Part shown: positions 23,632 through 64,000 of the stretch, one piece after another
Numbering within the stretch: position 1 is the stretch's first letter
How the letters are laid out: each line of letters opens with the position of its first letter
Assembly (NCBI GenBank): GCA_017480745.1
Contig: JAFUSA010000017.1
Span: 16,174 to 80,173 of the forward strand
Source of the DNA: Alphaproteobacteria bacterium
GTDB lineage: Bacteria; Pseudomonadota; Alphaproteobacteria; RF32; CAG-239
Reading direction: 5' to 3'
DNA length: 64,000 nt
The notes under the pieces: generated by a model
What the model was told of the DNA's origin: nothing
Seen by the model: the letters and a program-made list of their open reading frames with translations, nothing else
Databases searched by the model: none
Program-made: the position numbers and the translations under genes

Positions 23632-23708
23632 TGGCGTACCCGGCGAGGCTCGAACTCGCAACCTTTGGCGTCGGAGGCCAACACTCTATCCAATTGAGCT
23701 ACGGGTAC
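23632..23708 (-). tRNA. tRNA-Arg (anticodon CCG)
   Basis: Folded by hand into a 77-nt cloverleaf. Acceptor GTACCCG/CGGGTAC, D arm GCTC/GAGT, anticodon loop CT-CCG-AC, T arm GCGAG-TTCGAGC-CTCGC, encoded CCA. Promoter TTGACA-17-TAATAA at 23721-23749. Confidence 0.95.
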
Positions 23709-30440: not shown

Positions 30441-31211
30441 ATGCCCAAGAATATGACCTTAAAACAAGAAAAAAAGCTTCATCTGCGTGCACAAAAAATA
30501 TTTAAAGAAGCGAATCGCTTTCTTGTTACAAACTTTCGCTTTGTATCGTGTGTATTTATTATTAACATGATATATATGCTGGTATTTAAAGCTATAATCG
30601 GTGGAATTTCAAACCCTTTAAGTATTTTATGGATTATTTCCTATTATATTTTCTGGTGTTCGTTTTATCGATATTACTATCACCTCAAACCCTATATATT
30701 AAGCAAAACAATTTTCGGCAGTCTGAATCCGTCTGTTAAAGCGCTGGTTATTTTATTTTCTCTGACAATTACTATTGCCCTGATTCCGATGATTCCGTTT
30801 TTCTTAGGATTTAATGACCTATATATAAATATCTACGAAAACTATTTACAAAAACTAAGCCAAATATCAGACAATAGTGCCGAACCGGCAGATATAGCCA
30901 CGATTTTAACTATTTACGGACTTATGGCACTTGCTTCACCAACATTGATTTGTAAGCCTTATTTGGCGTGGATATCTTCTTTACGAGGGATGAATTCATC
31001 GTTTAAAAAAGTTGCGAATCGAGCCGGTGGAAATTATTGGCAATTTGTTATTATCTCTGCCGTGTTGCTATATGTTGAAGCATTTGGCAACCAATTAGAT
31101 AAAATAATGCAATGCCAAAACTGGCTTCAATACACTATCAGCACCACTGTGTTTGTATATACCAATATTGTTTTTGCTAAAATTTATGATTTCTTTTATA
31201 TAAAGCACTAA
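30441..31211 (+). CDS. Polytopic membrane protein, unknown function
   Basis: 256 aa, about six hydrophobic helices. Confidence 0.45.
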   Translation: MPKNMTLKQEKKLHLRAQKIFKEANRFLVTNFRFVSCVFIINMIYMLVFKAIIGGISNPLSILWIISYYIFWCSFYRYYYHLKPYILSKTIFGSLNPSVKALVILFSLTITIALIPMIPFFLGFNDLYINIYENYLQKLSQISDNSAEPADIATILTIYGLMALASPTLICKPYLAWISSLRGMNSSFKKVANRAGGNYWQFVIISAVLLYVEAFGNQLDKIMQCQNWLQYTISTTVFVYTNIVFAKIYDFFYIKH

Positions 31212-32182
31212 TGCCTCTGATGCCACATCAAACACAACAGGCGACATTTGCTTTTAAACGATAAATGATTGAAATTTACTATATTTTCCGCGGTTAACTT
31301 TTTATATTCTTTTTTGAAGTATTTTTCTAATTCGTCGCGATTCTCTGCACTTTTAGATATTTTGGAAAGCACCATTTTTAACGAAACACTGACACGTTTG
31401 TTTTGCACCAACTTCCATTGCTCTGCATCGCCTTTCTGTTGAAAATAATTATATACATGATATATCCCGACCATATAGTCGTGTATTTTTTTCACAGAAA
31501 ACGGGCTACGGGTAATAGACGGACATCCGGCATTATACATATACAATTTTTCATTAATAACAGCCATAGTTTTTAACGATGAAACCAAACAGGTTATAAA
31601 AGGCCAATCTTCAAACGATATTCCTTCAATAAAACGAGCCGATTTAATACAGTCGGCACGAAAAAGCTTATTCCATGCCACAGAAGAAACAATTCTGTAT
31701 TTATACAAATCTCGCAAAGGGTTTGCACTTAATTTATATTTAGTATCTTGTACCGGCAAAAAATTGTCGGAAATTACATAATTTTCATCATAAAATTTAT
31801 TAAAATCAGATGAAATAATTAAAGGAGCGTTTGTTTTGAGCGCCACATTATAAAAAATATCAAGCGTTTGCGGATGCAAGAAATCATCAGAATCCAAAAA
31901 GAAAATATACTCCCCGTTAGCCATATCAAGACCGACATTACGTGCTGCTGATAGTCCTCTGTTAGGTTGTGAAACGATTCGTAAACGTTTATCCTTGGCA
32001 GCATATTCTTTTAAAATTGTTGGACAACCGTCTTCCGAACCGTCATTTATACAAATAATCTCTATGTTGGTAAAAGTTTGCATAAGCACACTATCCAAGC
32101 AACGCGGTAAAAATTTTTCCACGTTATAAACCGGAATAACCACAGAAATATCACACTTTGGATTGCTTACCATTTTTCTCAA
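31208..32182 (-). CDS. Family-2 glycosyltransferase
   Basis: ISVVIPVYNVEKFLPRCLDSVLMQTF...INDGSEDG...FLDSDD. Confidence 0.85.
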   Translation of the reverse strand: MRKMVSNPKCDISVVIPVYNVEKFLPRCLDSVLMQTFTNIEIICINDGSEDGCPTILKEYAAKDKRLRIVSQPNRGLSAARNVGLDMANGEYIFFLDSDDFLHPQTLDIFYNVALKTNAPLIISSDFNKFYDENYVISDNFLPVQDTKYKLSANPLRDLYKYRIVSSVAWNKLFRADCIKSARFIEGISFEDWPFITCLVSSLKTMAVINEKLYMYNAGCPSITRSPFSVKKIHDYMVGIYHVYNYFQQKGDAEQWKLVQNKRVSVSLKMVLSKISKSAENRDELEKYFKKEYKKLTAENIVNFNHLSFKSKCRLLCLMWHQRH

Positions 32183-32283
32183 AACTCAATACAACTTTTT
32201 ATTACATATAATAGTCTTTTGTATAAAAGTCAAACAAAATATCTAAACAAAAAGAACTTTTTTCTCTGCCCCAAAAAAGAATA

Positions 32284-33081
32284 TCACTTCCAATAGTTCC
32301 TAATCCATGTGGTTGGTAAAACATGCTTATATATTTTTTTTAATCCATGGGGAGCTTTTATATTTTCCTCCTTACACCAAATTCCATGCAACGCTTCCGG
32401 AATGCCGGTAACTCCATGAAAAACAATCATTTTTAGTCCGACAACTTTCGGTATTTTAGGAACAATAAAATATCTTAACAACGGATGCGGCATACAATGA
32501 AAGCGAAAACTTTTGAACCAATTATCCGGCCAAAATTTTAAATTGCCATACTTTTCTATAACTTTGGCAGATAAATACTCTTGCGAAGCAGTTCCGTATT
32601 TTTGCCACACTTCATCAGAATGTTTTTCAAAATATTCTTTCACAAAACCCAATGTCCCCACAACAAAAGAATAACAACTTGCCTGTCCTACTGTATTTTT
32701 TCGCCTTCCGTGCCGATGTCTCCAATCATTGATAATGTAAAAATTTTCATTTTGCGGATACCGGAATAATTCATCTAAATTATCAACAATTAAAGAATCT
32801 AAATCAAAGAAAAATACTCTTTTTCCGCCTAAATTTCCTAAATTATTATCACACAAAGCTGCTTCTTTCAAATATCCGCTATATTGATATTTTTCATTCA
32901 CGGCAAATTCCGGCAAAGGTTTAACAATAATTTCTTGTTCCAAATTTATACAATCATCTGTAAAGCAATAAAAATCAATATCATACGAAGTATTTCGTTT
33001 AATGGCACGAAACAATTTATTTACATCATCTGCGTTGTAACATGTTCCCCATTTTATACAAATAACATTAATCGCCGTCAT
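32284..33081 (-). CDS. Putative nucleotide-sugar transferase (DxD)
   Basis: 265 aa. VICIKWGTCYNADDVNKL... and FFFDLDSLIV (DxD-like). 1-nt overlap with the upstream GT2. Confidence 0.4.
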   Translation of the reverse strand: MTAINVICIKWGTCYNADDVNKLFRAIKRNTSYDIDFYCFTDDCINLEQEIIVKPLPEFAVNEKYQYSGYLKEAALCDNNLGNLGGKRVFFFDLDSLIVDNLDELFRYPQNENFYIINDWRHRHGRRKNTVGQASCYSFVVGTLGFVKEYFEKHSDEVWQKYGTASQEYLSAKVIEKYGNLKFWPDNWFKSFRFHCMPHPLLRYFIVPKIPKVVGLKMIVFHGVTGIPEALHGIWCKEENIKAPHGLKKIYKHVLPTTWIRNYWK

Positions 33082-34040
33082 TACTTTATTCCTTTCAATA
33101 ACATTTCAGGACAACCTTTTTTTAAACTTAAAATAACAATACCCATTTTCCATAAACGATATTTTGTTTTAAGATTTAAAGCAGATATTTCTATAATATT
33201 TTCAGCGCAAAGCTTGAAAATTTCACTATGTAAATATCTGACTAAATCTTTATCTGATTTACTTTTATAAACTTTGTTAACCAACATGTTTATTGCTCGT
33301 AAAATTCGGCAATTTGCCAATTCAAGCAAATCTGTATGTTTGAAAAAGTTATATACATAGCGCACACCGATAATGTAACTTTTTATTTTGTGTAAGTTAA
33401 ACGGACTGCGTGTTGTAGAAATGTGGGAAGTATCGTAAATATATAATGGTATGGAGATTGAAGCATAATTTTTAATTGTTCCAAACAACGTTGTAATAAA
33501 CGGCCAATCTTCAAAATATATTCCTTCAATAAAACTTTTTTCCTTGATAACCGAAGCTTTGTATAATTTATTACAGGCGGAAGACGCTATTTTCGGGTGT
33601 TTTACAAGTTCCGAAAGAGGAAAATCATATAACTTCCAAGCAAACTTATATACATGATAAATATTTTCTTTTTCCGCCGGTAAAATTTCATCAGAAACAA
33701 CAACATCAGCCTGTGATAAATTTGCTGTTTTTATAAATATTTCCAAAGCTTCTCTCGGTAAATAATCATCAGAATCTAAAAAAAATACATACTCGCCTCT
33801 TGCTTTTTCAAGACCTCTGTTACGAGCTACTGATTGTCCGGCATTTGCTTGATTAATCAATTTAAATTTATTGTTTTTTGTGGTATATTCCTCTAAAATA
33901 TGCAGGCTTCCATCTGTGGAACCATCGTTTATTAAAATAACTTCATAATCGCTGAACGTCTGTTGCAATAATGAATCTAAACAGCGTTCCAGCAGTGTTG
34001 CCGTATTATAAACAGGAATAATTACAGATATCTTAGGCAT
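33081..34040 (-). CDS. Family-2 glycosyltransferase
   Basis: ISVIIPVYNTATLLERCLDSLLQQTF...INDGSTDG...FLDSDD. Paralogue of 31208-32182. Confidence 0.85.
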   Translation of the reverse strand: MPKISVIIPVYNTATLLERCLDSLLQQTFSDYEVILINDGSTDGSLHILEEYTTKNNKFKLINQANAGQSVARNRGLEKARGEYVFFLDSDDYLPREALEIFIKTANLSQADVVVSDEILPAEKENIYHVYKFAWKLYDFPLSELVKHPKIASSACNKLYKASVIKEKSFIEGIYFEDWPFITTLFGTIKNYASISIPLYIYDTSHISTTRSPFNLHKIKSYIIGVRYVYNFFKHTDLLELANCRILRAINMLVNKVYKSKSDKDLVRYLHSEIFKLCAENIIEISALNLKTKYRLWKMGIVILSLKKGCPEMLLKGIK

Positions 34041-34063: not shown

Positions 34064-34257
34064 AAAAAACCGCCAAACGGCGGCCGGGAGTTGAAAAATC
34101 ATGCAATACTATGTGATCCTGTTAGTCTTTAGGTTGACACCCCGTACATCCACCAACAGCTCCCAACCAAAGTCGGAAACACATTTATAAACCTTATAAC
34201 GATGCAGTCAGCACCGAGTATTGCAAGAGCTTTTCAAGGCCCTGAACCGAAGTTCTG
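34064..34257 (-). promoter_or_regulatory. Structured 5' leader, copy D (riboswitch-like, ends in terminator) upstream of the glycosyltransferase operon
   Basis: Same helices and conserved loops as the copies at 37031, 44307 and 58386. Terminator GCCGCCGTTTGGCGGT + T6 lies about 20 nt before the RBS. TATAAT-type -10 at about 34263-34275. Confidence 0.7.
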
Positions 34258-34364
34258 TATTTATTATATTATAATCTCAGCAAAAGTAAAGCTCTTTTTA
34301 CACAAGTCACAACAAAAGCACCGCCGATAAAAACCGGCGGTACATATTGATTTTGTGTCAAAAA

Positions 34365-36135: not shown

Positions 36136-36996
36136 TTAATCATCGTATGTTGTTAAGCCGTCCGACCACAAAGAATAATCGACATCAAACATAAAAGAGA
36201 TGTATTTACCTTCTGCGTCTCCTTCTGACTCAAACAGATCTGCACAGAATTTAACGGCATTATCTACCGATAGCGGAACTTTGGCAGTTATTTCTCCGGA
36301 TTTTGCCACATCGGTATAAACAAACACGACTCCGGCCGATGTCCAATCTTGGCTCAACAGTTCAATACATGCTTCTTCATTATCTCCAATAGTATAATTG
36401 ATGTAAAACGCCTGACGATCACCATCTTTGGCTTTATCTGCTGCATATAAACCAACCCCACCACCGAAAGGATTGGTAATAGACATAATCTTACCATCAG
36501 TTACGGTAATCATTTCATCAGGGAATATTTTGGCTTTTTTAACTATCGGACAGCCATTGTTATCATGGGTTGGTTTTCCGTCTGCATCAACGGAAGCTCC
36601 ATCGCAACCGGAGGCGATGCAAGTGCCATCACTATTACTATCACAACGCGCCCCGATATAGTTCTTCTGTGGTCCCCAAAAGGCACGAATATTACCGGCA
36701 ATGAGAGTTATTTGCTCAATGGTTTTGTTGATGCGATATTTAGTCATCGCCTTGCTGTATCCGGCGATTCCTCCAACAGAGAGAACGCCAATAATGGCTA
36801 ACACGCCCAACATCTCAATCATTGACCGTCCGGACTGCGTGGCAAAACCACACTTATAGTCATGCCTCGATTCCGCAGGAATCGTCAAGGCATCTTCCGC
36901 TTGATTAAAATTAATTTGAAGATCCCTTGATGCATTCGCCTTTGCAAGGCTATGCGAGGGATGACTCTTTATATTTTTAATTTCTAAGTTTCTCAT
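36136..36996 (-). CDS. Type IV pilin-like protein (prepilin-type N-terminal domain) with unusually long 56-aa leader
   Basis: ...QSG|RSMIEMLGVLAIIGVLSVGGIAGYSKAM: Gly-1, Glu+5, and a hydrophobic helix. Cys-rich variable C-domain. Paralogues at 43627, 58617 and 63839. Confidence 0.7.
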   Translation of the reverse strand: MRNLEIKNIKSHPSHSLAKANASRDLQINFNQAEDALTIPAESRHDYKCGFATQSGRSMIEMLGVLAIIGVLSVGGIAGYSKAMTKYRINKTIEQITLIAGNIRAFWGPQKNYIGARCDSNSDGTCIASGCDGASVDADGKPTHDNNGCPIVKKAKIFPDEMITVTDGKIMSITNPFGGGVGLYAADKAKDGDRQAFYINYTIGDNEEACIELLSQDWTSAGVVFVYTDVAKSGEITAKVPLSVDNAVKFCADLFESEGDAEGKYISFMFDVDYSLWSDGLTTYDD

Positions 36997-37030: not shown

Positions 37031-37230
37031 AAAAAATTGACCGTCAAACGGCGGTCGGGAGAGTTGATAAATCATAGAGTTTGATATGATCTCCCTATTC
37101 TTTAGAATAAAATTCCTGAACATCCAATAGAGACTCCCCGCCCAAAATCGGAGATAAATCACACATTTTCATAACGATGCACCGCACCGCAAACTCTAAG
37201 AGCTTATCAAGGCTCCGAACCGAAGTTCTT
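37031..37230 (-). promoter_or_regulatory. Structured 5' leader, copy A, with terminator
   Basis: Promoter TTGACT (37258-37263) / TATCAT (37236-37241). UUCG hairpin at 37217-37228. Terminator GACCGCCGTTTGACGGTC + T-run at 37031-37056. Confidence 0.7.
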
Positions 37231-37438
37231 AGTCTATGATATCATAAATTCGGCAAAAGTCAAATAAAAAATATAAACTTTACCAAAAAAGCAGGCAATA
37301 CCGGATAATATAACCGACAATAAGCCTCTCAACTATCAGAAAGCCAACTTTTTGTATTTTTATCTTTACTTTCTTTTTAAAGGAGAGTATAATAGCGTGT
37401 AAATTAAAATTATTATAAACCTCAAAAAAATACGCATT

Positions 37439-40918: not shown

Positions 40919-42349
40919 TCAATCTAAATATTTGCTGTTGTCAATATTCCAAATATTCTCCTTATCCTGCAAGTTATGTGCAATATTTTCCGCCACAGCC
41001 ATACCGCTTAAAACAGCGTGATCCATATTGATATATTTATGCATTCCGTTGCGTCCGATCAAATAGAGATTTTTCACACTATCGGTATAATTTTTTATTT
41101 GTTCAAATTGCAAATAACTGCCAAAATACGCCGGATAAGCTTTTTCCAGCTTAAATGAGTATGCTTCAATCACATCCTTGTCATCAATTAGGCTGATTTT
41201 TTCCGCTTCTGCAATAGCCATAGCCGTAAATTTTTCATCTGACATTTGCCACAAATTATCGTTATCACCGCAAAAATATTCCAAAGCCAACAGAACTTTT
41301 GTTCTATCTGCCAGCAAATCAGCTGACCAATTATTATAAACTTGTATGCGTCCAATTTTTACATCGCTTTCTTGAATATAAAGCCAAGTATCCGGCAAAA
41401 TATGCGTTTTAAGCATTTTATTCAGTAAAACAACAGCACTGCGAAAATTGCGATATTGCAGACCTGCGGCAATTTGTCTGATATTTTGCGGAACATTTGG
41501 TAACATAGTAATTAAGTCCTTAACCGGCAGGGAAGATATAAAATAATCCCCTTCAATAGTTTGCTCAGAACCATCTGCCATACGAATAACCGCAGAAATA
41601 ATTTTATCTCCGGAAGTATTGAGGCGCACCACTTCGGCGTTAAAAGTAAACTCTCCGCCTTGTTTAAGCACTTTATCGGCAACTTTTTGCCAAAGCTGCG
41701 CCGGTCCGTATTTAGGATATAAGAAAGTATCTTTTATTTTTGGCCGAAAAGCTTTTAAGACAGAAAGCACAATCTCGCGTAAATGAATCCCGCGAATACG
41801 TTCCCTGCCCCATTCGGCAGAAATCTCGCGACAAGAAATTCCCCACAGTTTTTCGGTATAATCTTTGAAAAACGTACGATAAAGTACTTTACCAAAAGTG
41901 TTAATTAAAAAATCTTCGGCAGATTTTTCCGGCTTTATCGGATGCAATTTTGCACGCAAATAAGAAGCGATGATATTTAGCATACGCTTTAACCCTAAGC
42001 CGTGAAAAGTACGCAGATTCAACGCTACCGGATAATCAAAAAAACGTCGCAGATAATATATGCGCGAAAGACGATTTTGCGTAATAAAAGTATCTGTTGT
42101 ATTCGGAGCATCAAGTGGCAAAAATTGCAACCACCAATCGTGCACTTTGCTAAATTTAGTAAAAAAGCGATGTCCGCCGATATCCGCCAAATTATCACCG
42201 GCGCGAGCGGTTAAACACAAACCGCCGACAAACGGATTTTTCTCTACCACCAGCGGTTGCACCTCACTCTGCTGCAAAAGCTCATACGCCGCAGTCAATC
42301 CGGCGGGACCGGCACCCAAAATAACCGCCCTAACCTTGCGTTTGTGCAT
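40919..42349 (-). CDS. FAD/NAD(P)-binding oxidoreductase (amine-oxidase / UDP-galactopyranose-mutase-like fold)
   Basis: 476 aa. N-terminal dinucleotide fold VRAVILGAGPAGLTAAYEL. Overlaps the upstream membrane-protein gene by 20 nt. Confidence 0.65.
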   Translation of the reverse strand: MHKRKVRAVILGAGPAGLTAAYELLQQSEVQPLVVEKNPFVGGLCLTARAGDNLADIGGHRFFTKFSKVHDWWLQFLPLDAPNTTDTFITQNRLSRIYYLRRFFDYPVALNLRTFHGLGLKRMLNIIASYLRAKLHPIKPEKSAEDFLINTFGKVLYRTFFKDYTEKLWGISCREISAEWGRERIRGIHLREIVLSVLKAFRPKIKDTFLYPKYGPAQLWQKVADKVLKQGGEFTFNAEVVRLNTSGDKIISAVIRMADGSEQTIEGDYFISSLPVKDLITMLPNVPQNIRQIAAGLQYRNFRSAVVLLNKMLKTHILPDTWLYIQESDVKIGRIQVYNNWSADLLADRTKVLLALEYFCGDNDNLWQMSDEKFTAMAIAEAEKISLIDDKDVIEAYSFKLEKAYPAYFGSYLQFEQIKNYTDSVKNLYLIGRNGMHKYINMDHAVLSGMAVAENIAHNLQDKENIWNIDNSKYLD

Positions 42350-43640
42350 TATCTGCCTCCTTTGACTTAATATACCAAAAGTTCAGCATAACAATCAGCG
42401 GAAAAAAGGTTGCCACCCATAAGCGATAGGTATAACTTGCATGTTGCAACGGATGTCCACCGACAATAAAACACCAAAACAAAGTAGAAGTCGCTATTGC
42501 CACAAACGGCAACAACGTAACGCTGTTATTTTTTGCATAGAGCCACGTTTTTTTCGCGCGCCAAACCAAAGGCGCTAAGGAAAGAATAAAACTCCAAGTT
42601 GCCGCGGCAACCGTTTCCGGTATGGCAAACAACACCCTCCATGTTGCCACAATAGCAAAACCGCGCGTATATTCGGTAATAACTTCTTTGCCTTTAAGAA
42701 CATAGCGCATTTGTGAAGTAGAACGATTTAAGAGCGCATTAAAAACATCGGCAACCACATTTTGCTCAGTCAACAGCGACGCCAAAATCCATTTGAGCAC
42801 CCACATACCAACATAAGCTCCGCCAAAACATAAGGTTAAAACCAATAGTCGTTTAAACATTGACTTAAACTCAGTTTCCGGTTCTAAATAAAAAAGCAAT
42901 GTCAATGAAGTTGCCAACGGCACAATCGGATAAGTGAGAAAATCAAAAAAGCAAGTGCAAATCCCTATCATGGCAAAAAATATCGGGTAGCCGAGGCGCT
43001 CCTTTATCCATTCACGGCAGGTCAGCATTAAAATCATAGATACTGCGCTGACATAATAAAGAATGGAATAAGTCATATTCATTGCCATGGCTTCGGGGTT
43101 AAAAATAAAGTAACTGAGCGCCCAACCAAGCATCAGCCCTTTGGCTTTATTTTGCCACATTAGCCACAAAATCAGCCCGAACAGCCACACTTGCAGATAT
43201 AAATTAATTTGCCGGATGTGCTGATAATCAGTGAAATAAAGCAGCGGACGCAAAAAAATCTGATACCCGTGCCAATAGCGCGGATAGTATATTTTATAAT
43301 ACTCCAAATCATCGCGGCAGATAGTTTCAAGCGGAAAAATATCTATCCAATCCGGTTGTTGTTTATAAACCGTATAGAGCGGATTATTGAAAAAAGTTTG
43401 CCAACCGGCTTCGTCTTTTACTCCGTTTGCCACCAACATCATTGTCGCATCGGTATAGTTATCAAGAATGCGACCGGCAACCGACGGATGATAATCTTCC
43501 GCCATATATAACGAACAGGCATTTTTGCTGTGCGCAACACCCTTAGTCGGCGGCACATATTGCACCGCCATACCTAAGAAAACAAAACAACATATCATAC
43601 CTAATATGTATGATAAACGTATCATTTTATTTAATGACAA
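42330..43640 (-). CDS. Polytopic membrane protein, GT-C-like glycosyltransferase suspected
   Basis: 436 aa, at least 10 hydrophobic helices, extracytoplasmic loop with YPRYWHGYQ. Overlaps the pilin-like gene by 14 nt. Confidence 0.4.
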   Translation of the reverse strand: MSLNKMIRLSYILGMICCFVFLGMAVQYVPPTKGVAHSKNACSLYMAEDYHPSVAGRILDNYTDATMMLVANGVKDEAGWQTFFNNPLYTVYKQQPDWIDIFPLETICRDDLEYYKIYYPRYWHGYQIFLRPLLYFTDYQHIRQINLYLQVWLFGLILWLMWQNKAKGLMLGWALSYFIFNPEAMAMNMTYSILYYVSAVSMILMLTCREWIKERLGYPIFFAMIGICTCFFDFLTYPIVPLATSLTLLFYLEPETEFKSMFKRLLVLTLCFGGAYVGMWVLKWILASLLTEQNVVADVFNALLNRSTSQMRYVLKGKEVITEYTRGFAIVATWRVLFAIPETVAAATWSFILSLAPLVWRAKKTWLYAKNNSVTLLPFVAIATSTLFWCFIVGGHPLQHASYTYRLWVATFFPLIVMLNFWYIKSKEADNAQTQG

Positions 43641-44259
43641 AAACTATACCATTATGATCAATAGAACAAAGAGTAATAGCATCCTCTACGCCACCTGAAT
43701 ATGCCGAACCGTTAATTTCCATACTTTCCGGATTTAAGGCGCTCCAATCCTGAGAAGCTATATCAATGCAAGCCTCCATAGGAATATCAAATACACCTAA
43801 AGATAGAGTTTTATCACCATCCATGGAACTAAAACAAATTCCTCCACCAAAAGCATTTATAACATTTGTACTGTCAGTCTGATTTTCCAATCCGTGACTC
43901 CCATCTACCCTTGCGACTATAAAAGTCTGTTTTGGTGAAACTAATGTTTCATCTGGCACCAGATGTGCTTTTCGCACTACATCACTTACGCTATCCATTC
44001 CCGATTCATATGCAAGTCCTCCGCATCCCATCCATATTCCTGCATACCTCCTATCAGCCGGTTGGCTGGCAGTGAAAGAACGCATATTGCCGGCAATTAA
44101 GGTAATTTGTTCAATTGTTTTGTTAATGCGATACTTCATCATCGCTTTACTGTATCCGGCGATTCCGCCAACAGAAAGCACGCCGATAATTGCCAAAACG
44201 CCTAACATTTCGATCATTGAGCGTCCGTTTTGATGATTTTTTATTTCAAAATTTTTCAT
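43627..44259 (-). CDS. Type IV pilin-like protein (short 12-aa leader)
   Basis: MKNFEIKNHQNG|RSMIEMLGVLAIIGVLSVGGIAGYSKAMMKYRINKTIEQITLIAGN. Confidence 0.75.
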   Translation of the reverse strand: MKNFEIKNHQNGRSMIEMLGVLAIIGVLSVGGIAGYSKAMMKYRINKTIEQITLIAGNMRSFTASQPADRRYAGIWMGCGGLAYESGMDSVSDVVRKAHLVPDETLVSPKQTFIVARVDGSHGLENQTDSTNVINAFGGGICFSSMDGDKTLSLGVFDIPMEACIDIASQDWSALNPESMEINGSAYSGGVEDAITLCSIDHNGIVFVIK

Positions 44260-44306: not shown

Positions 44307-44499
44307 AAAAAGACCACCAAATGGTGGTCGGAGAGGTAGAAAATCACACGGTTTAAGCTGATTTCTGTAACCTTTAAGCTAAATGCTCTGTACATCCGCT
44401 ACAGACTCCCCAACCCAGTCGGAGATATTATTAAACACCATAACGATGCAAAGCACCGTAAACCGTAAGAGCTTTCTACAGCTCCGAACCGAAGTTCTG
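44307..44499 (-). promoter_or_regulatory. Structured 5' leader, copy C, with terminator
   Basis: Promoter TTGACA (44527-44532) / TAACAT (44505-44510). UUCG hairpin at 44486-44497. Terminator GACCACCATTTGGTGGTC + T5. Confidence 0.7.
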
Positions 44500-44551
44500 A
44501 ATCTATGTTAGCATAATTTTTGCAAATGTCAAACAATTTTTGCAAACAATT

Positions 44552-45921: not shown

Positions 45922-48621
45922 TTACATTCCGCCACGTTCGGTTCCCACGCGTACAGCAACACTGCGAACTTCTTTTTCTGTTTTAGCAACGGCGGAATCC
46001 CCGTCATCTTTTGCCAAACGAGATGCGTTATAATCCGGCACAACTTGTGGCTGTCCACCTGTTGGAGTATTCGGCTGATTATTTCCGGCATTGCCTCCGT
46101 TAGTGTTCGGCTGGTTGTTATTTGGTTGTTGAACCGGTTGATTATTGCGATTCGGTTGCGGATGTGTACGCATATAATCCGGCAGATAATTATTAACAAA
46201 GTCACCGATTTCCAACGGAACATTAAATGACTTTATCATATCTATTTCATCCAGCCCCAAAGACTTCAAGTCTTCGTTAATACCGTCACACATATTGCGT
46301 GCATTATTATATATATCTTTAACAATAATCTGATCGGCTCGCTTGGCGCCTATATTAGGGTTAAAACGAACATCTATCAATTCACGATATACATCATCCT
46401 TGGCTATTTGCTGTTGGCGCGGATATAAAATATCAAACACTTGCTCCAATTGTTGAGTGCTCATCTTATCTACCGAACCGCCTAAACCGGCATTTTGCAA
46501 AGCTTGTTTTTCAGCCATACTTAACTTATCCGAAGACAATAACGGACGACCTGCAACATCATGAAAATAGTTGGATTTCGGTGCCACATCATTATACGCA
46601 TCAAACAAAACACGCAAAGTGCGAAACGCGGCAATTTTATCCACTGCGCCGGTATCCGGATTAGAAGTGCGCAATATTGTTTTGATTTTAGGTTTTAAAG
46701 TTTCGGCATAGCCATTAGTAAAGGAACGATAGTGATAAGAGTTTATCAAACCATCTATATACGACTGCTCGGAATCATCCAAACGCTTATGCTTCTGACG
46801 ATTATTCTTTTGCGCCTGAGTGCCCAAACGAAACTTAAATAATGCATATTTTTCATCCGAAAGTTTCGGTGGTTTGCCGGCTTCAAGCATACCAGTCATT
46901 TTAGAACGATCCAAACCAATACCAACCGGAATCATTCCTTTTTCAGCCAGAGCTTTGCGCCACAAACCTTTTTCAGCATCAGGCATACCCATAGGGAAGT
47001 TAACATGCGTTATTCCCAAACTTTCAAGTTGCCCGATAATTCCGTTAATATACGCTTCATCAAGCTTTTTGTTGTTAGGTGTGCGATACCCTATTTGAAT
47101 GGTTCCGTTTTTTTCACGAACAAACAATTTGAAAGAATAAAGATACGGCGATATTTTGCCCTTATCATCAACTTTGCCCTCTTTACGGCGCTGTTCATCT
47201 GTAACTTCACCATCATAAACAGTATAAACCGTCCATCCGGTGCCAAACCAACCAGAATGCTTTTTGAACAATGTTTTACCTAAAACCTTATTCAAACCTT
47301 TTGAAGTTCCAATCCATTCATCAAATTTTTCCTCTGCATCAGCACGCCTTACACGGCGGCGGCGATGTGGCGCCGGTGCATTCTGCCCTTGTGGCGCCGG
47401 CGGAGTATTTGGAGTTTGGTTATTACCATTACCGGCAGGCTGTTGCGCAGGCTGATTATTATTGTTATTGTTGCGACGATGAAACCATGAAAAAATAGAA
47501 TTTTGTGCAACATCTTTATCATCTATATCAATAACAGCCGTTTCTTCCTCACTAAATCCAACCACACCGATTTCTCCGGCAGTAGGTAAATCCGGTGTAA
47601 TATCGTTTTTATCAGGTTTTGACGAACTGCTGTTCTCGGCATTTTTTTTATCGTTTGGATTTTGTGCATCGGCTTTTTCTTCTGTATTTAACTCAGTTTT
47701 TTCGGAAACCGTATTTTCAGTTTGTTGTTCATCATGTGTTTTGCCGCCGTTGGCAATAATTTCCTGATACTCTTTATCTAATTCTTTTTGATGCTCTTCC
47801 CTTATTTGTGTTTCGCCTAAATCTTTTTGCTCTCCTTGAGCTTTCTGCTCGGCTTTTAATTCTTCAATAAGTGCTGATATTCGTTCTTTGGCTGCAATTA
47901 TTTCCTCATCTGTTTCACTCTCACCGGCACGAACTTCCATTTTATCCGTTTCAAATCCGCTTTTTTCGCAAAAATCCAAAACTTCGCCAAGTTGCTCCTT
48001 ATCCAAATCTGCTGCCACTTGTTCGGAAAAAGTTATTTGCATTTTAAGCTTTTGCTCTTCTTCATTTGGAACATCATATTCCATAATTCCAAGACTAAAC
48101 TTAAACGGCTGCTCCTCCCCATTTTCTGCCGGAACTTCAACTTGCAATGCCAACTGTTTCAAACGTCCTTCCGGATCGGCATTCATCTTAAAATATTGTT
48201 CTTGCGTTAAAATATCTCCGTTGTCAATAATATCTTCTTCCACAAAGGAAACATTTTCCGCATATCCTTTTTTGATATGCTCTTCACGAATGCGATATAA
48301 CTGCGAAAATGTAGGGCCGTATTCTTGCAAATAAGAATATTCCTGTTTCAGCACATTGAACTCTTTACTCAGTTTATGGTTTTCAGAATCCACCTTTTCT
48401 CTGTTTTGTCGTATTTCTTCCGGCGCAAAAATTTTGTTTTCACTCGTTGCGTTAGCATCATTATATTCTGCCAAAGACAACTCATCAGATGCCTCCATAT
48501 TTTCTCGCAAAAGCTCATTTAGTGAAACCAACTGCTGTGCAAACTTGCGTTTTAAGGACTGTTCGCTGTATTCTTCCGGAAGTTCGGAAATTAAGGTGTT
48601 TTCAATATAAGTTCTTGCCAT
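45922..48621 (-). CDS. Large hypothetical protein with acidic coiled-coil N-half and N/Q/P-rich linkers
   Basis: 899 aa, no signal peptide or TM. NNNNNNQPAQQPAGNGNNQTPNTPPAPQGQNAPAP and a C-terminal NQPVQQPNNNQPNTNGGNAGNNQPNTPTGGQPQ. Confidence 0.5.
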   Translation of the reverse strand: MARTYIENTLISELPEEYSEQSLKRKFAQQLVSLNELLRENMEASDELSLAEYNDANATSENKIFAPEEIRQNREKVDSENHKLSKEFNVLKQEYSYLQEYGPTFSQLYRIREEHIKKGYAENVSFVEEDIIDNGDILTQEQYFKMNADPEGRLKQLALQVEVPAENGEEQPFKFSLGIMEYDVPNEEEQKLKMQITFSEQVAADLDKEQLGEVLDFCEKSGFETDKMEVRAGESETDEEIIAAKERISALIEELKAEQKAQGEQKDLGETQIREEHQKELDKEYQEIIANGGKTHDEQQTENTVSEKTELNTEEKADAQNPNDKKNAENSSSSKPDKNDITPDLPTAGEIGVVGFSEEETAVIDIDDKDVAQNSIFSWFHRRNNNNNNQPAQQPAGNGNNQTPNTPPAPQGQNAPAPHRRRRVRRADAEEKFDEWIGTSKGLNKVLGKTLFKKHSGWFGTGWTVYTVYDGEVTDEQRRKEGKVDDKGKISPYLYSFKLFVREKNGTIQIGYRTPNNKKLDEAYINGIIGQLESLGITHVNFPMGMPDAEKGLWRKALAEKGMIPVGIGLDRSKMTGMLEAGKPPKLSDEKYALFKFRLGTQAQKNNRQKHKRLDDSEQSYIDGLINSYHYRSFTNGYAETLKPKIKTILRTSNPDTGAVDKIAAFRTLRVLFDAYNDVAPKSNYFHDVAGRPLLSSDKLSMAEKQALQNAGLGGSVDKMSTQQLEQVFDILYPRQQQIAKDDVYRELIDVRFNPNIGAKRADQIIVKDIYNNARNMCDGINEDLKSLGLDEIDMIKSFNVPLEIGDFVNNYLPDYMRTHPQPNRNNQPVQQPNNNQPNTNGGNAGNNQPNTPTGGQPQVVPDYNASRLAKDDGDSAVAKTEKEVRSVAVRVGTERGGM

Positions 48622-58286: not shown

Positions 58287-58385
58287 AAAATATCTATCCT
58301 ATAACGTTGTTATTGAACAGTATGGATTTTTTACCTATACAGTAAAAATAGTTTGACTTTTATTTTTTTTATGATATAGTAAACT

Positions 58386-58582
58386 CAGGACTTCGGTTCA
58401 GAGCTTTCATCGGCTCATGTACAACTCGGTGCACTGCATCGTCACAGAAGTATTGAATATCTCCGACTTGGTCGGGGAGTCCGTGATGGATGTTCAAGGT
58501 GTTTACCTAAAGATTACGGAAGTCATATAGTTGTACATGATTGATGAACTCTCCCGACCGCTGTTTAGTGGTCAATTTTTTT
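58386..58582 (+). promoter_or_regulatory. Structured 5' leader, copy B, with terminator
   Basis: Promoter TTGACT 58353-58358 / TATAGT 58375-58380. Helices are listed in the first finding. Terminator GACCGC-UGUUUA-GUGGUC at 58556-58573 + U7. Confidence 0.75.
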
Positions 58583-58616
58583 AATGTGTTAACACTTAAT
58601 TTTAGGAGATGAAATT

Positions 58617-59354
58617 ATGAAAAACTTAGAAATAAAAAATCTTCAAAGTAATTTTAATCAAGCGGAAGATGCCTTGACGATTCCTGTGGAATCAAGGCAT
58701 GACTATAAATGTGGCTCTGCCACGCAGTCCGGACGCTCAATGATAGAGATGTTGGGTGTGCTGGCTATAATCGGTGTTTTGTCGGTAGGTGGTATTGCAG
58801 GATATAGTAAGGCAATGCAAAAATATAGAATCAATAAAACCATTGAGCAGATAACCTTAATTGCCGGTAATATACGTGCGTTCTTTGGACCACAGAAGAA
58901 TTATATCGGGGTGAGTTGTAGTTGTGGTGGTGGAAGTTGTCCTCACAATGGTTGTCCGGTAATTAAAAAAGCCAAGATATTGCCCGATGATATGCTTACC
59001 GTAACTGATGGCAAGATTATGTCTATTACCAATCCTTTTGGTGGTTGGGTTAGTTTACGTATATTAGATAAAGCCAAAAACGGTGATAATCAGGCGTTTG
59101 AAATTGCTTTAACCGATCTTCCTCAGGAAGCTTGTATTGAACTTTTGAGCCAAGATTGGAGCAATAGCAATGTAAGTATTATTCGTCTGCAAAGAGATAC
59201 AGATACGGAATATGTGTTTTTTCATAATTTTCCAGCATCTATTGATAATGTTACTGAATCATGTGTGCATAATAACCATCTAGAATTACTATTTGATACT
59301 GATGTAAATTTTATGAAAAATGATGAGAAGTATGGGGAAATGACTTGGTATTAG
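58617..59354 (+). CDS. Type IV pilin-like protein (37-aa leader)
   Basis: MKNLEIKNLQS[27-aa insert]G|RSMIEMLGVLAIIGVLSVGGIAGYSKAMQKYRINKTIEQITLIAGN. C-domain shows QEACIELLSQDWS and PASIDNVTESC. Confidence 0.75.
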   Translation: MKNLEIKNLQSNFNQAEDALTIPVESRHDYKCGSATQSGRSMIEMLGVLAIIGVLSVGGIAGYSKAMQKYRINKTIEQITLIAGNIRAFFGPQKNYIGVSCSCGGGSCPHNGCPVIKKAKILPDDMLTVTDGKIMSITNPFGGWVSLRILDKAKNGDNQAFEIALTDLPQEACIELLSQDWSNSNVSIIRLQRDTDTEYVFFHNFPASIDNVTESCVHNNHLELLFDTDVNFMKNDEKYGEMTWY

Positions 59355-63508: not shown

Positions 63509-63631
63509 AATCACAACAAATATATAATATCCGCCGGAGCTTTTTATAACTCCGGCGAGAAGTTTGTGCTTATTAATAATTTTTGAAAAAAAACAGTTTG
63601 ACTTTGGATTTTTTTGTGATATAGTAAAATC

Positions 63632-63801
63632 AAGATGAGGTAACTTGTCTGAGGCCTGCAAGCCTCTTTAAGTCCGTCTTAATAGACGTAAAATTTTCCA
63701 GCGTGGCTGGATGGTTGCGGAATAAATTTTATTATGAATACGCAACGCTATTGACTTAAATAGTTTGCAGCTTCCAGCCGCCTCAAAAGGGCGGTTATTT
63801 T
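63632..63801 (+). promoter_or_regulatory. Different multi-hairpin 5' leader with terminator upstream of the fifth pilin-like gene
   Basis: Promoter TTGACT 63598-63603 / TATAGT 63620-63625. Hairpins GAGGC..GCCUC, CGUCU-UAAU-AGACG, CCAGC-GUG-GCUGG, UUGCG..CGCAA. Terminator CCGCC-UCAAAAG-GGCGG + U-rich at 63778-63801. Confidence 0.5.
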
Positions 63802-63838
63802 ATGTAGTATCAACAATTCATATGAAAGGAAGTTTACT

Positions 63839-64000
63839 ATGAGAAACTTAAAAATTAAAAATAATGAATCCGGACGCTCAATGATAGAAATGTTGGGCGT
63901 GTTGGCTATCATCGGTGTATTATCGGTTGGTGGAATCGCCGGATATTCTAAGGCAATGATGAAATATCGTATTAATAAAACTATTGAGCAGATAACTCTC
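63839..64000 (+). CDS. Type IV pilin-like protein, N-terminal part (runs off window)
   Basis: MRNLKIKNNESG|RSMIEMLGVLAIIGVLSVGGIAGYSKAMMKYRINKTIEQITL. Confidence 0.75.
   Translation, partial: MRNLKIKNNESGRSMIEMLGVLAIIGVLSVGGIAGYSKAMMKYRINKTIEQITL

Follow-up and report, generated by a model that had tools for sequence, protein, structure and literature searches.

The window, by which we mean the whole stretch of 64 kb that was analysed, has a G+C content of about 37% and encodes an outer-membrane beta-barrel protein, ChpT, HpnC/D-like enzymes, TrmFO, HydF, and ordinary housekeeping proteins, as well as several type IV pilins. A first-pass annotation of this DNA had proposed that four loci share a structured 5' leader of about 195 nt. 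All four copies were found at the positions and on the strands given there, each with a sigma70-type promoter and a hairpin/U-run terminator. They are designated c58, c37, c44, and c34, belong to one sequence type (type 1), and have a mean identity of 76% in a full-length alignment. Three signature patterns each match exactly these four places, with a chance expectation of 0.01-0.13. The count of four holds for type 1; a fifth leader of a second type was added at 63632-63803 on the plus strand. The leaders and the genes which follow them are:

58353..58380, plus strand: promoter of c58 (TTGACT, 16-nt spacer, TG-n-TATAGT, i.e. an extended -10 region; promoter scan)
58386-58582, plus strand: leader c58, type 1
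58556-58573 with U run to 58582, plus strand: intrinsic terminator of c58 (GACCGCU-GUUU-AGUGGUC; terminator scan)
58617..59354, plus strand: type IV pilin gene (245 aa), putative target of c58, processing motif G/RSMIEMLGVLAIIGVL
37031..37263, minus strand: leader c37, type 1 (promoter 37263-37236, RNA ~37229-37031, terminator stem 37056-37039)
36136..36996, minus strand: pilin gene after c37 (286 aa)
44307..44532, minus strand: leader c44, type 1 (promoter 44532-44505, RNA ~44499-44307, terminator stem 44329-44312)
40919..44259, minus strand: operon after c44 for a pilin (210 aa), a 436-aa protein without Pfam match, and an FAD amine-oxidase-like protein (476 aa)
34064..34290, minus strand: leader c34, type 1 (promoter 34290-34263, RNA ~34257-34064, terminator ~34084-34064)
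31208..34040, minus strand: operon after c34 with two GT2 glycosyltransferase genes on either side of a gene for a 265-aa protein of unknown function
63598..63803, plus strand: fifth leader, type 2, divergent (promoter 63598-63625, RNA ~63632-63803, terminator stem 63778-63794)
63839 to beyond the window end, plus strand: pilin gene after the fifth leader

Promoters, terminators, and downstream genes

The promoter is kept in all type-1 copies of the alignment, and transcription of c58 presumably starts near position 58387, at the foot of the hairpin GGAC-UUCG-GUUC. At the other end of the leader, a G+C-rich hairpin (58556-58573) stands directly before the U run AAUUUUUUU, as is characteristic of intrinsic terminators, and equivalent hairpins are present in all leader copies. 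The terminators are located 20-45 nt 5' of the ribosome-binding site of the pilin or pilin-related gene. The gap between terminator and start codon is usually 9-45 nt, and the promoter scan revealed no credible second promoter within it. No regulator gene was found near the leaders in the gene annotation of the window.

Three of the four genes after type-1 leaders encode paralogous type IV pilins with the motif G/RSMIEMLGVLAIIGVL (Pfam PilS and Bundlin), whereas the fourth leader, c34, precedes the GT2 glycosyltransferase operon. More than 7,800 relatives of the pilin family were found, the closest being labelled "MAG: Alphaproteobacteria bacterium". The DNA thus probably stems from an uncultured, anaerobic gut alphaproteobacterium, perhaps a member of the order Rs-D84 (PMC12306168). 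From DNA fetched around pilin relatives, a set of 30 leaders from gut and rumen metagenomes was obtained, which comprises three sequence types: 13 distinct leaders of type 1 (including the four of the window), 16 of type 2 (including the fifth leader of the window), and a single one of type 3. Types 1 and 2 occur together in single genomes. Genes of one type IV pilin family directly follow 27 of the 30 leaders on the same strand; the remaining three leaders precede the GT2 operon, a gene for a sulfatase-family membrane protein, and one unresolvable open reading frame. Most of the further pilin loci in the metagenome scan (L008-L086) have upstream regions that are unrelated to the leaders. A pattern search of genome contigs with the type-1 core gave four matches, all of them in high-G+C taxa and none in the source species, which were taken as chance.

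Two alternative folds of the leader RNA

The predicted terminating fold, Fold A, is the minimum-energy structure in 29/29 leaders folded. RNAalifold and single-sequence folding agree on the order of its elements, which is a 5' hairpin P1, a long-range helix P2 of about 23 bp around P3, P4, and P5, and the terminator abutting P2. In c58, the parts of the leader are:

58388..58399, plus strand: P1, 5'-terminal hairpin GGAC-UUCG-GUUC (helix 1, 100% paired)
58400..58426, plus strand: 5' strand of P2, composed of AGAGC (P2a), UUUCAUCG (P2b), GCUC, and the locus-specific AUGUACAACU (P2c)
58427..58441, plus strand: P3, hairpin CGGUGC-ACU-GCAUCG (helix 3, double changes in 4/7 pairs)
58460..58479, plus strand: P4, hairpin UCUCCGAC-UUG-GUCGGGGAG, the putative anti-antiterminator
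58480..58520, plus strand: P5, covarying helix UCCGUGAU/AUUACGGA, which encloses the internal loop GGAUGUUCA / UAAAG and a small hairpin
58521..58548, plus strand: 3' strand of P2 in Fold A, composed of AGUCAUAU, the 3' variable strand AGUUGUACAU, and GAUUGAUGAA
within 58521..58548, plus strand: P6 and junction in Fold B (UCAU/AUGA stem with the variable strand in the loop)
58549-58559, plus strand: C-rich foot CUCUCCCGACC, which overlaps the terminator at 58556-58573 (whole part 58549..58582)

In the alignment of the 13 type-1 leaders, 96.7% of the cells of Fold A are paired, and double changes were found in 30 pairs and 138 cells; none of 500 shuffles scored as high, and slid controls had about 40% paired cells and at most 22 double-change cells. 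The covariation is thus strongly supported with more homologues aligned. For 12 type-2 leaders, the corresponding values are 94.5% paired cells and double changes in 16 pairs and 56 cells. Within type 1, P2 (helix 2) accounts for 23 pairs, 14 of them with double changes, and is 98.7% paired, and P5 (helix 5) has double changes in 7/8 pairs.

Most of the elements of the first-pass annotation, namely the 5' tetraloop hairpin, the long-range helix differing in every copy, the hairpin P4, the second covarying helix (P5), the C-rich segment mimicking P4, and the terminator, are present as they had been described, and the proposal of a structured leader with compensatory changes and a competing terminator and antiterminator holds with much stronger support from 30 homologues. 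Two elements had to be redefined. The GAGC-N8-GCUC hairpin is not free-standing in the dominant fold, where it is part of P2, and can form as a hairpin in the alternative fold only. As its loop covaries with the 3' segment GAUGAA, the long-range helix comprises about 23 bp and not 8-10 bp. The CGGUGC/GCAUCG hairpin (P3), described as invariant, is so in the window but covaries in the relatives (UGGUGUU/AACAUCA, CGGCGU/ACGUCG, AGGUGU/ACACCU).

When the 3' domain was folded in isolation, the same three-way junction, designated Fold B, was obtained for 29/29 leaders. The closing helix of this predicted antiterminating fold consists of the 3' strand of P4 (GGUCGGGGAG) and the C-rich foot, including the 5' half of the terminator stem. 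The junction further contains P5, which is formed in Fold A and Fold B alike, and an additional hairpin, P6, which carries the locus-specific 3' strand of P2 in its loop, while GAGC and GCUC of the P2 5' strand form a local hairpin instead. Fold B applied to type 2 has 99% of its cells paired and a covarying closing helix (U-A to C-G; G-C to A-U), and slid controls yielded zero double changes. The stem of P6 is type-specific in sequence yet complementary (AUCAU/AUGAU, ACUAU/AUAGU, GCCGU/ACGGU), and the local hairpin of the P2 5' strand likewise varies yet stays complementary (GAGC/GCUC, GRGG/CCUC, GGG/CCC).

The segments paired in both folds, including AUCAU, which is unpaired in Fold A, have an identity of 0.85-1.0, whereas helices with a single partner have an identity of 0.55-0.81 and covary freely; conservation of the former and variability of the latter fit a dual use. 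The internal loop of P5 has the sequence GGAUGUWCA/UAAAG in type 1, where its identity is 0.95-0.98, and RRAAUA/AAUA in type 2, and it is A-rich in types 2 and 3 and in sRNA-Xcc1 (see below). A candidate pairing of the strand J3/4 (AUAUC) with the P5 loop (GAUGU) comprises just 4-7 bp and shows no covariation. CsrA, whose SELEX consensus resembles the GGAUGU of type 1, was considered as a binding protein, but GGA is not conserved in type 2b. The inverted repeat was not taken for an inverton or MITE, as its arms differ in each copy and the promoter lies outside the arms.

The alternative helix between the P4 3' strand and the foot has a mean energy of -17.2 kcal/mol versus -11.3 kcal/mol for P4 and is stronger in 22/26 leaders; in the type-2b subgroup, P4 equals it in stability. 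For each copy, the calculated energy favours Fold A over Fold B, by 1-23 kcal/mol with a mean of 9 kcal/mol, and in many copies a bound factor could bridge this gap. Given this difference and the earlier transcription of the competitor strands, Fold B may need a factor to be populated at all. Pairing of the P4 3' strand with the foot while P2 persists would create a pseudoknot.

Relationship to sRNA-Xcc1

At the gathering thresholds of Rfam 15, the leaders had zero matches, and riboswitch and attenuator families (c-di-GMP-I/II, c-di-AMP, T-box, PyrR, and others) gave none even at E values up to 10. This agrees with the first-pass annotation, in which the leader could not be matched by consensus to the riboswitch classes considered. 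The label of a candidate new class holds in part, but the leader is not unrelated to all known RNAs: judged by covariance models, sRNA-Xcc1 (Rfam RF02221) is distantly related to its 3' domain as folded in the antiterminator state. This assignment is based on RF02221 matches below the gathering score of 53 bits together with a reciprocal detection. RF02221 matches type 2 with 30.1 and 29.0 bits (E 0.03-0.06) and type 3 with 30.4 bits (E 0.0012), and these alignments fall exactly in the register of Fold B; the type-1 leader c58 and the type-2 copy of the window gave no RF02221 match at E values up to 10. In the reverse direction, a covariance model (R1) built from type-2 Fold-B domains only was used in a search space of 578 kb, with genuine Xcc1 elements of 69-73 bits for comparison. 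R1 detected a genuine Xcc1 of Aeromonas (L093) with 29.7 bits (E 4.6e-4), type 3 with an E value of 1.6e-5, and type-1 copies with E values of 0.003-0.005. It ranked genuine Xcc1 elements at the top in 4/4 of their loci (E 1.6e-5 to 0.09) and, again in the Fold-B register, recovered the window's type-1 leaders (4/4).

With sRNA-Xcc1, the leaders share the architecture of the three-way junction: the closing helix measures about 9 bp, the first of the two hairpins carries an asymmetric, A-rich internal loop, and a junction of 6 nt (U..A) leads from the second one to the closing strand. The closing helix of Pseudomonas Xcc1 (GUCGGGAG/CUCCCGAC) nearly equals the alternative helix of type 1. Both RNAs are located in the 5' leader of a gene on the same strand, and each has in its second hairpin a loop with a complementary segment elsewhere in the transcript. 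Only the pilin leaders possess a true intrinsic terminator and an additional 5' domain of 85-110 nt (P1, P2 5' strand, P3, P4 5' strand) which is predicted to be able to unfold the junction; no such competitor domain was present in the four genuine Xcc1 members examined (L090-L093). These latter elements start about 50 nt past the terminator of the upstream gene in three cases and about 90-150 nt past a terminator-like hairpin in the case of L090.

Genuine Xcc1 elements start shortly 3' of a promoter and sit 40-70 nt before antirepressor, BRO, KilA-N, or ORF6N genes of phages, plasmids, and genomic islands. They also precede symE in integron cassettes (bioRxiv 10.1101/2025.06.18.660453). Phage antirepressor, BRO, KilA-N, or SymE genes take the place that pilin genes have here. 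In Xanthomonas, sRNA-Xcc1 accumulates as a discrete RNA of 88 nt (PMC2996969). In 9/10 genuine Xcc1 elements examined, the Shine-Dalgarno/start-codon region of the downstream gene has a complement of 6-11 nt in the loop of the second hairpin, with a different sequence each time. This suggests that Xcc1 elements are cis-regulatory leaders whose loop would base-pair with the region of translation initiation in antirepressor genes. In the pilin leaders, by contrast, the loop has as its partner the upstream variable segment, i.e. the core of P2, and P6 loops have no consistent complementarity to the pilin ribosome-binding sites, just inconsistent AT-rich matches. As the loop is thus directed at the translation start region in Xcc1 and at the upstream variable segment in pilin leaders, the family seems to follow a common principle, in which a structured junction exposes a variable antisense loop for pairing with a target in its own transcript. 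In the literature reached, we found neither a pilin leader of this kind nor a mechanism for Xcc1.

Putative mechanism and alternative explanations

The leader is real, recurrent, and neither a product of chance nor a known riboswitch, and its function as a pilin-gene attenuator is structurally well supported by the fold models. Comparative and modelling evidence makes it probable that each unit is a cis-acting bistable transcription attenuator related to sRNA-Xcc1, in which two mutually exclusive folds are under selection. In Fold A, the C-rich foot would be left free, so that the terminator forms and the gene is OFF. In Fold B, pairing of the P4 3' strand with the foot, including the 5' half of the terminator, would block the terminator and turn the gene ON. 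Pairing between the upstream variable segment and the P6 loop may nucleate P2, and termination would be the default, given the greater stability of Fold A and the earlier synthesis of the competitor strands. For read-through, some factor (a small molecule or a protein) would have to stabilise the three-way junction or mask the 5' competitor, and the conserved internal loop of P5 would be its likeliest contact. The differences in this loop between types coexisting in one genome suggest two specificities or a protein partner rather than one universal metabolite.

As in trp-type leaders and the PyrR-controlled pyr leader of Bacillus, three competing helices can be built in the pilin leaders from four segments, namely the 5' and 3' strands of P4, the foot, and the 3' strand of the terminator; the middle one of these helices is the strongest. 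In the Bacillus pyr leader, a factor stabilises the anti-antiterminator. The pilin leaders have no leader peptide, and leader-peptide attenuation was rejected because, among the four copies, an AUG-led frame exists in c58 only and lacks a ribosome-binding site. Furthermore, no PyrR, RAT, ANTAR, or T-box motif was found in the leaders with Rfam, and the second layer of competition, between P2 on the one hand and the local GAGC/GCUC hairpin and P6 on the other, has no counterpart in the trp-type and pyr systems. In Clostridioides difficile, the type IV pilin gene pilA1 is under the control of a transcriptional leader with terminator, a c-di-GMP-II riboswitch. Its architecture is different, and the pilin leaders match neither the c-di-GMP-I nor the c-di-GMP-II model. 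The C4 antisense RNA of phages P1 and P7 (immI region; RF01695) is a structured RNA in the leader of the operon it controls. Its loops have a complementary target on the same RNA and vary from one related element to the next, which determines specificity. The locus-specific loop/target pairs of the pilin leaders and of Xcc1 are a parallel to this, but the target in C4 is at a ribosome-binding site, the output is translation and polarity, there is no overlapping intrinsic terminator, and no match by sequence or model was found.

Two properties of a riboswitch are present, namely a structured domain supported by covariation and an expression platform with mutually exclusive terminator and antiterminator, in which the foot is common to the alternative helix and the terminator stem. 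The P5 loop, conserved at 0.95-0.98 within type 1 and different in types 2 and 3, is a candidate pocket, and the genes concerned encode pilins, GT2 enzymes, and a sulfatase-family protein. The leader is a candidate riboswitch at most. A metabolite-dependent OFF switch would use the four-way junction of Fold A (P2, P3, P4, P5 with the strands J3/4 and J5/2) as aptamer, the ligand locking P4 so that the terminator forms, whereas read-through via the helix of P4 3' strand and foot would occur in its absence. The conserved single strands and the highly conserved P5 internal loop of Fold A, the retention in all types of P3, which has no role in Fold B, the systematic weakness of P4 relative to the alternative helix, as for a ligand-dependent anti-antiterminator, and the unpaired GG in the P4 loop, a possible toehold for the foot, agree with such a switch. 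We nevertheless regard it as unlikely, because the closing helix of about 23 bp is stable without ligand, the nucleotides of the candidate pocket differ between types 1 and 2 in one and the same genome, the targets are pilin genes without a metabolic theme, no known class matches, and the entire 5' half is missing from the genuine Xcc1 relatives.

It is highly improbable that P2 serves mainly as an RNase III site, at which cleavage would trim the leader from the read-through mRNA and set its stability or translation, with the alternative fold being irrelevant. P2 is indeed a nearly uninterrupted duplex of about 23 bp that is compensated in every copy, and typical substrates of RNase III have about this length, yet the complementarities AUCAU/AUGAU and GAGC/GCUC, the mimicry and covariation of foot and P4, and the relation to Xcc1 would be left unexplained. 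The promoter and strong terminator of every unit would also suit stand-alone genes for trans-acting sRNAs of the Xcc1 type which end at their own terminators and for which the position before pilin genes is incidental or gives low read-through only. The discrete 88-nt RNA of Xanthomonas (PMC2996969) and the 2011 description of sRNA-Xcc1, whose title as cited calls the RNA trans-acting, point in the same direction. Such genes are very unlikely here, as 27/30 copies are directly before one gene family on the same strand, the gap from terminator to start codon is usually 9-45 nt without a credible second promoter, and the RNA is closed on itself in Fold A. In addition, the variable segments have no second match in the window or in four related loci (L007, L087-L089), where a search for trans targets gave no significant extra matches.

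The leader defines an RNA family supported by covariation which precedes genes of a type IV pilin family that is greatly expanded (more than 7,800 relatives) in uncultured gut and rumen Alphaproteobacteria. It is also a natural case of an RNA whose helix nucleotides almost all find a partner in either fold, so that conservation versus covariation reads out the dual use, and it is linked to sRNA-Xcc1, which is annotated in many proteobacterial genomes and Stx phages. A further and rather doubtful possibility is that the Xcc1-type junction is an orphan sensor for a ligand or protein that is wired to two outputs, masking of the ribosome-binding site in phage antirepressor leaders and an intrinsic terminator in pilin leaders, with the locus-specific loop/target pair as an orthogonal address. 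If this were true, orthogonal addresses would let dozens of pilin paralogs in a very small genome switch independently, and the outcome would be an RNA-based phase or antigenic variation of pilins.

Pilin genes and leaders of the window

Four paralogous type IV pilin genes are located within 64 kb, and the gene starting at 63839 (+), which extends past the window end, is preceded by a fifth leader that represents the second sequence type and has its own promoter and terminator.

36136-36996, -, type IV pilin gene
43627-44259, -, type IV pilin gene
58617-59354, +, type IV pilin gene
63839-64000, +, type IV pilin gene
63598-64000, +, fifth leader and start of its pilin gene

The four pilins share an identical mature N-terminus but differ in the length of the pre-sequence (MKNLEIKN...) and in their C-terminal domains. 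These pilins have more than 7,800 relatives in the protein collection, with numerous paralogs in individual MAGs. Among the loci from human-gut and rumen metagenomes, type 2 is the commoner leader form. A scan of 185,579 species-representative genomes with the type-1 core pattern revealed no genuine type-1 copy, nor any from the window's own species; type 1 is either limited to lineages missing from the scanned collection or very narrowly distributed.

Within c58, a type-1 copy, the end of the J3/4 linker between P3 and P4 (GAAUAUC, 58454-58460, +) is complementary to the conserved internal loop of P5 (GAUGUUC, 58489-58495). In c58 this pairing spans 7 bp; most type-1 copies allow 4-5 bp (AUAUC/GAUGU). 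The pairing could form a tertiary contact or pseudoknot in the terminating fold (Fold A). Covariation supporting the pairing was not found.

The window contains a single tRNA, the only feature in it that reaches the gathering score of an Rfam family. No significant Pfam or NCBIfam family was obtained for two further genes, long open reading frames of 899 and 757 amino acids.

23632-23708, -, tRNA-Arg (CCG)
45922-48621, -, open reading frame, 899 aa
50944-53217, -, open reading frame, 757 aa

Genuine sRNA-Xcc1 elements

In nine of ten genuine elements of sRNA-Xcc1 (RF02221), a distant relative of the 3' domain of the leaders, the second-hairpin loop shows 6-11 nt of complementarity to the Shine-Dalgarno or start-codon region of the downstream antirepressor-type gene, which suggests that sRNA-Xcc1 is a cis-acting translational regulator. 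The loop and its target differ in each element (e.g. CUUUGUGA with UCACAAAG-GAGG; CUGUUUG with CAAACAG-GAG). These nine loci (L091-L099) originate from plasmids, phages, and E. coli; the sole exception, the element of Neisseria gonorrhoeae (L090), lacks complementarity of the loop to the ribosome-binding site, and about 140 nt downstream of it the leader-derived covariance model matches again, less strongly. No description of a cis-acting translational role for sRNA-Xcc1 was found in the literature.

L090 2709-2774, +, second leader-model match (E 0.054)

Other genes associated with type-1 leaders

The genes 3' of the c44 pilin gene, oriented in the same direction, encode a 436-aa protein having no Pfam match and an FAD amine-oxidase-like protein (476 aa), which are unusual company in a pilin operon. 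At the related locus L088, the gene behind the type-1 leader encodes no pilin but a membrane protein of the sulfatase family (PF00884).

Window 40919-43640, -, two genes behind the c44 pilin gene
L088 1982-2186, -, type-1 leader
L088 99-1955, -, sulfatase-family membrane protein gene

The pilin phosphoform transferase PptA is a member of the sulfatase family, and the regulon may therefore include pilin-modifying enzymes, with which the GT2 operon of the window (31208-34040) would fit.
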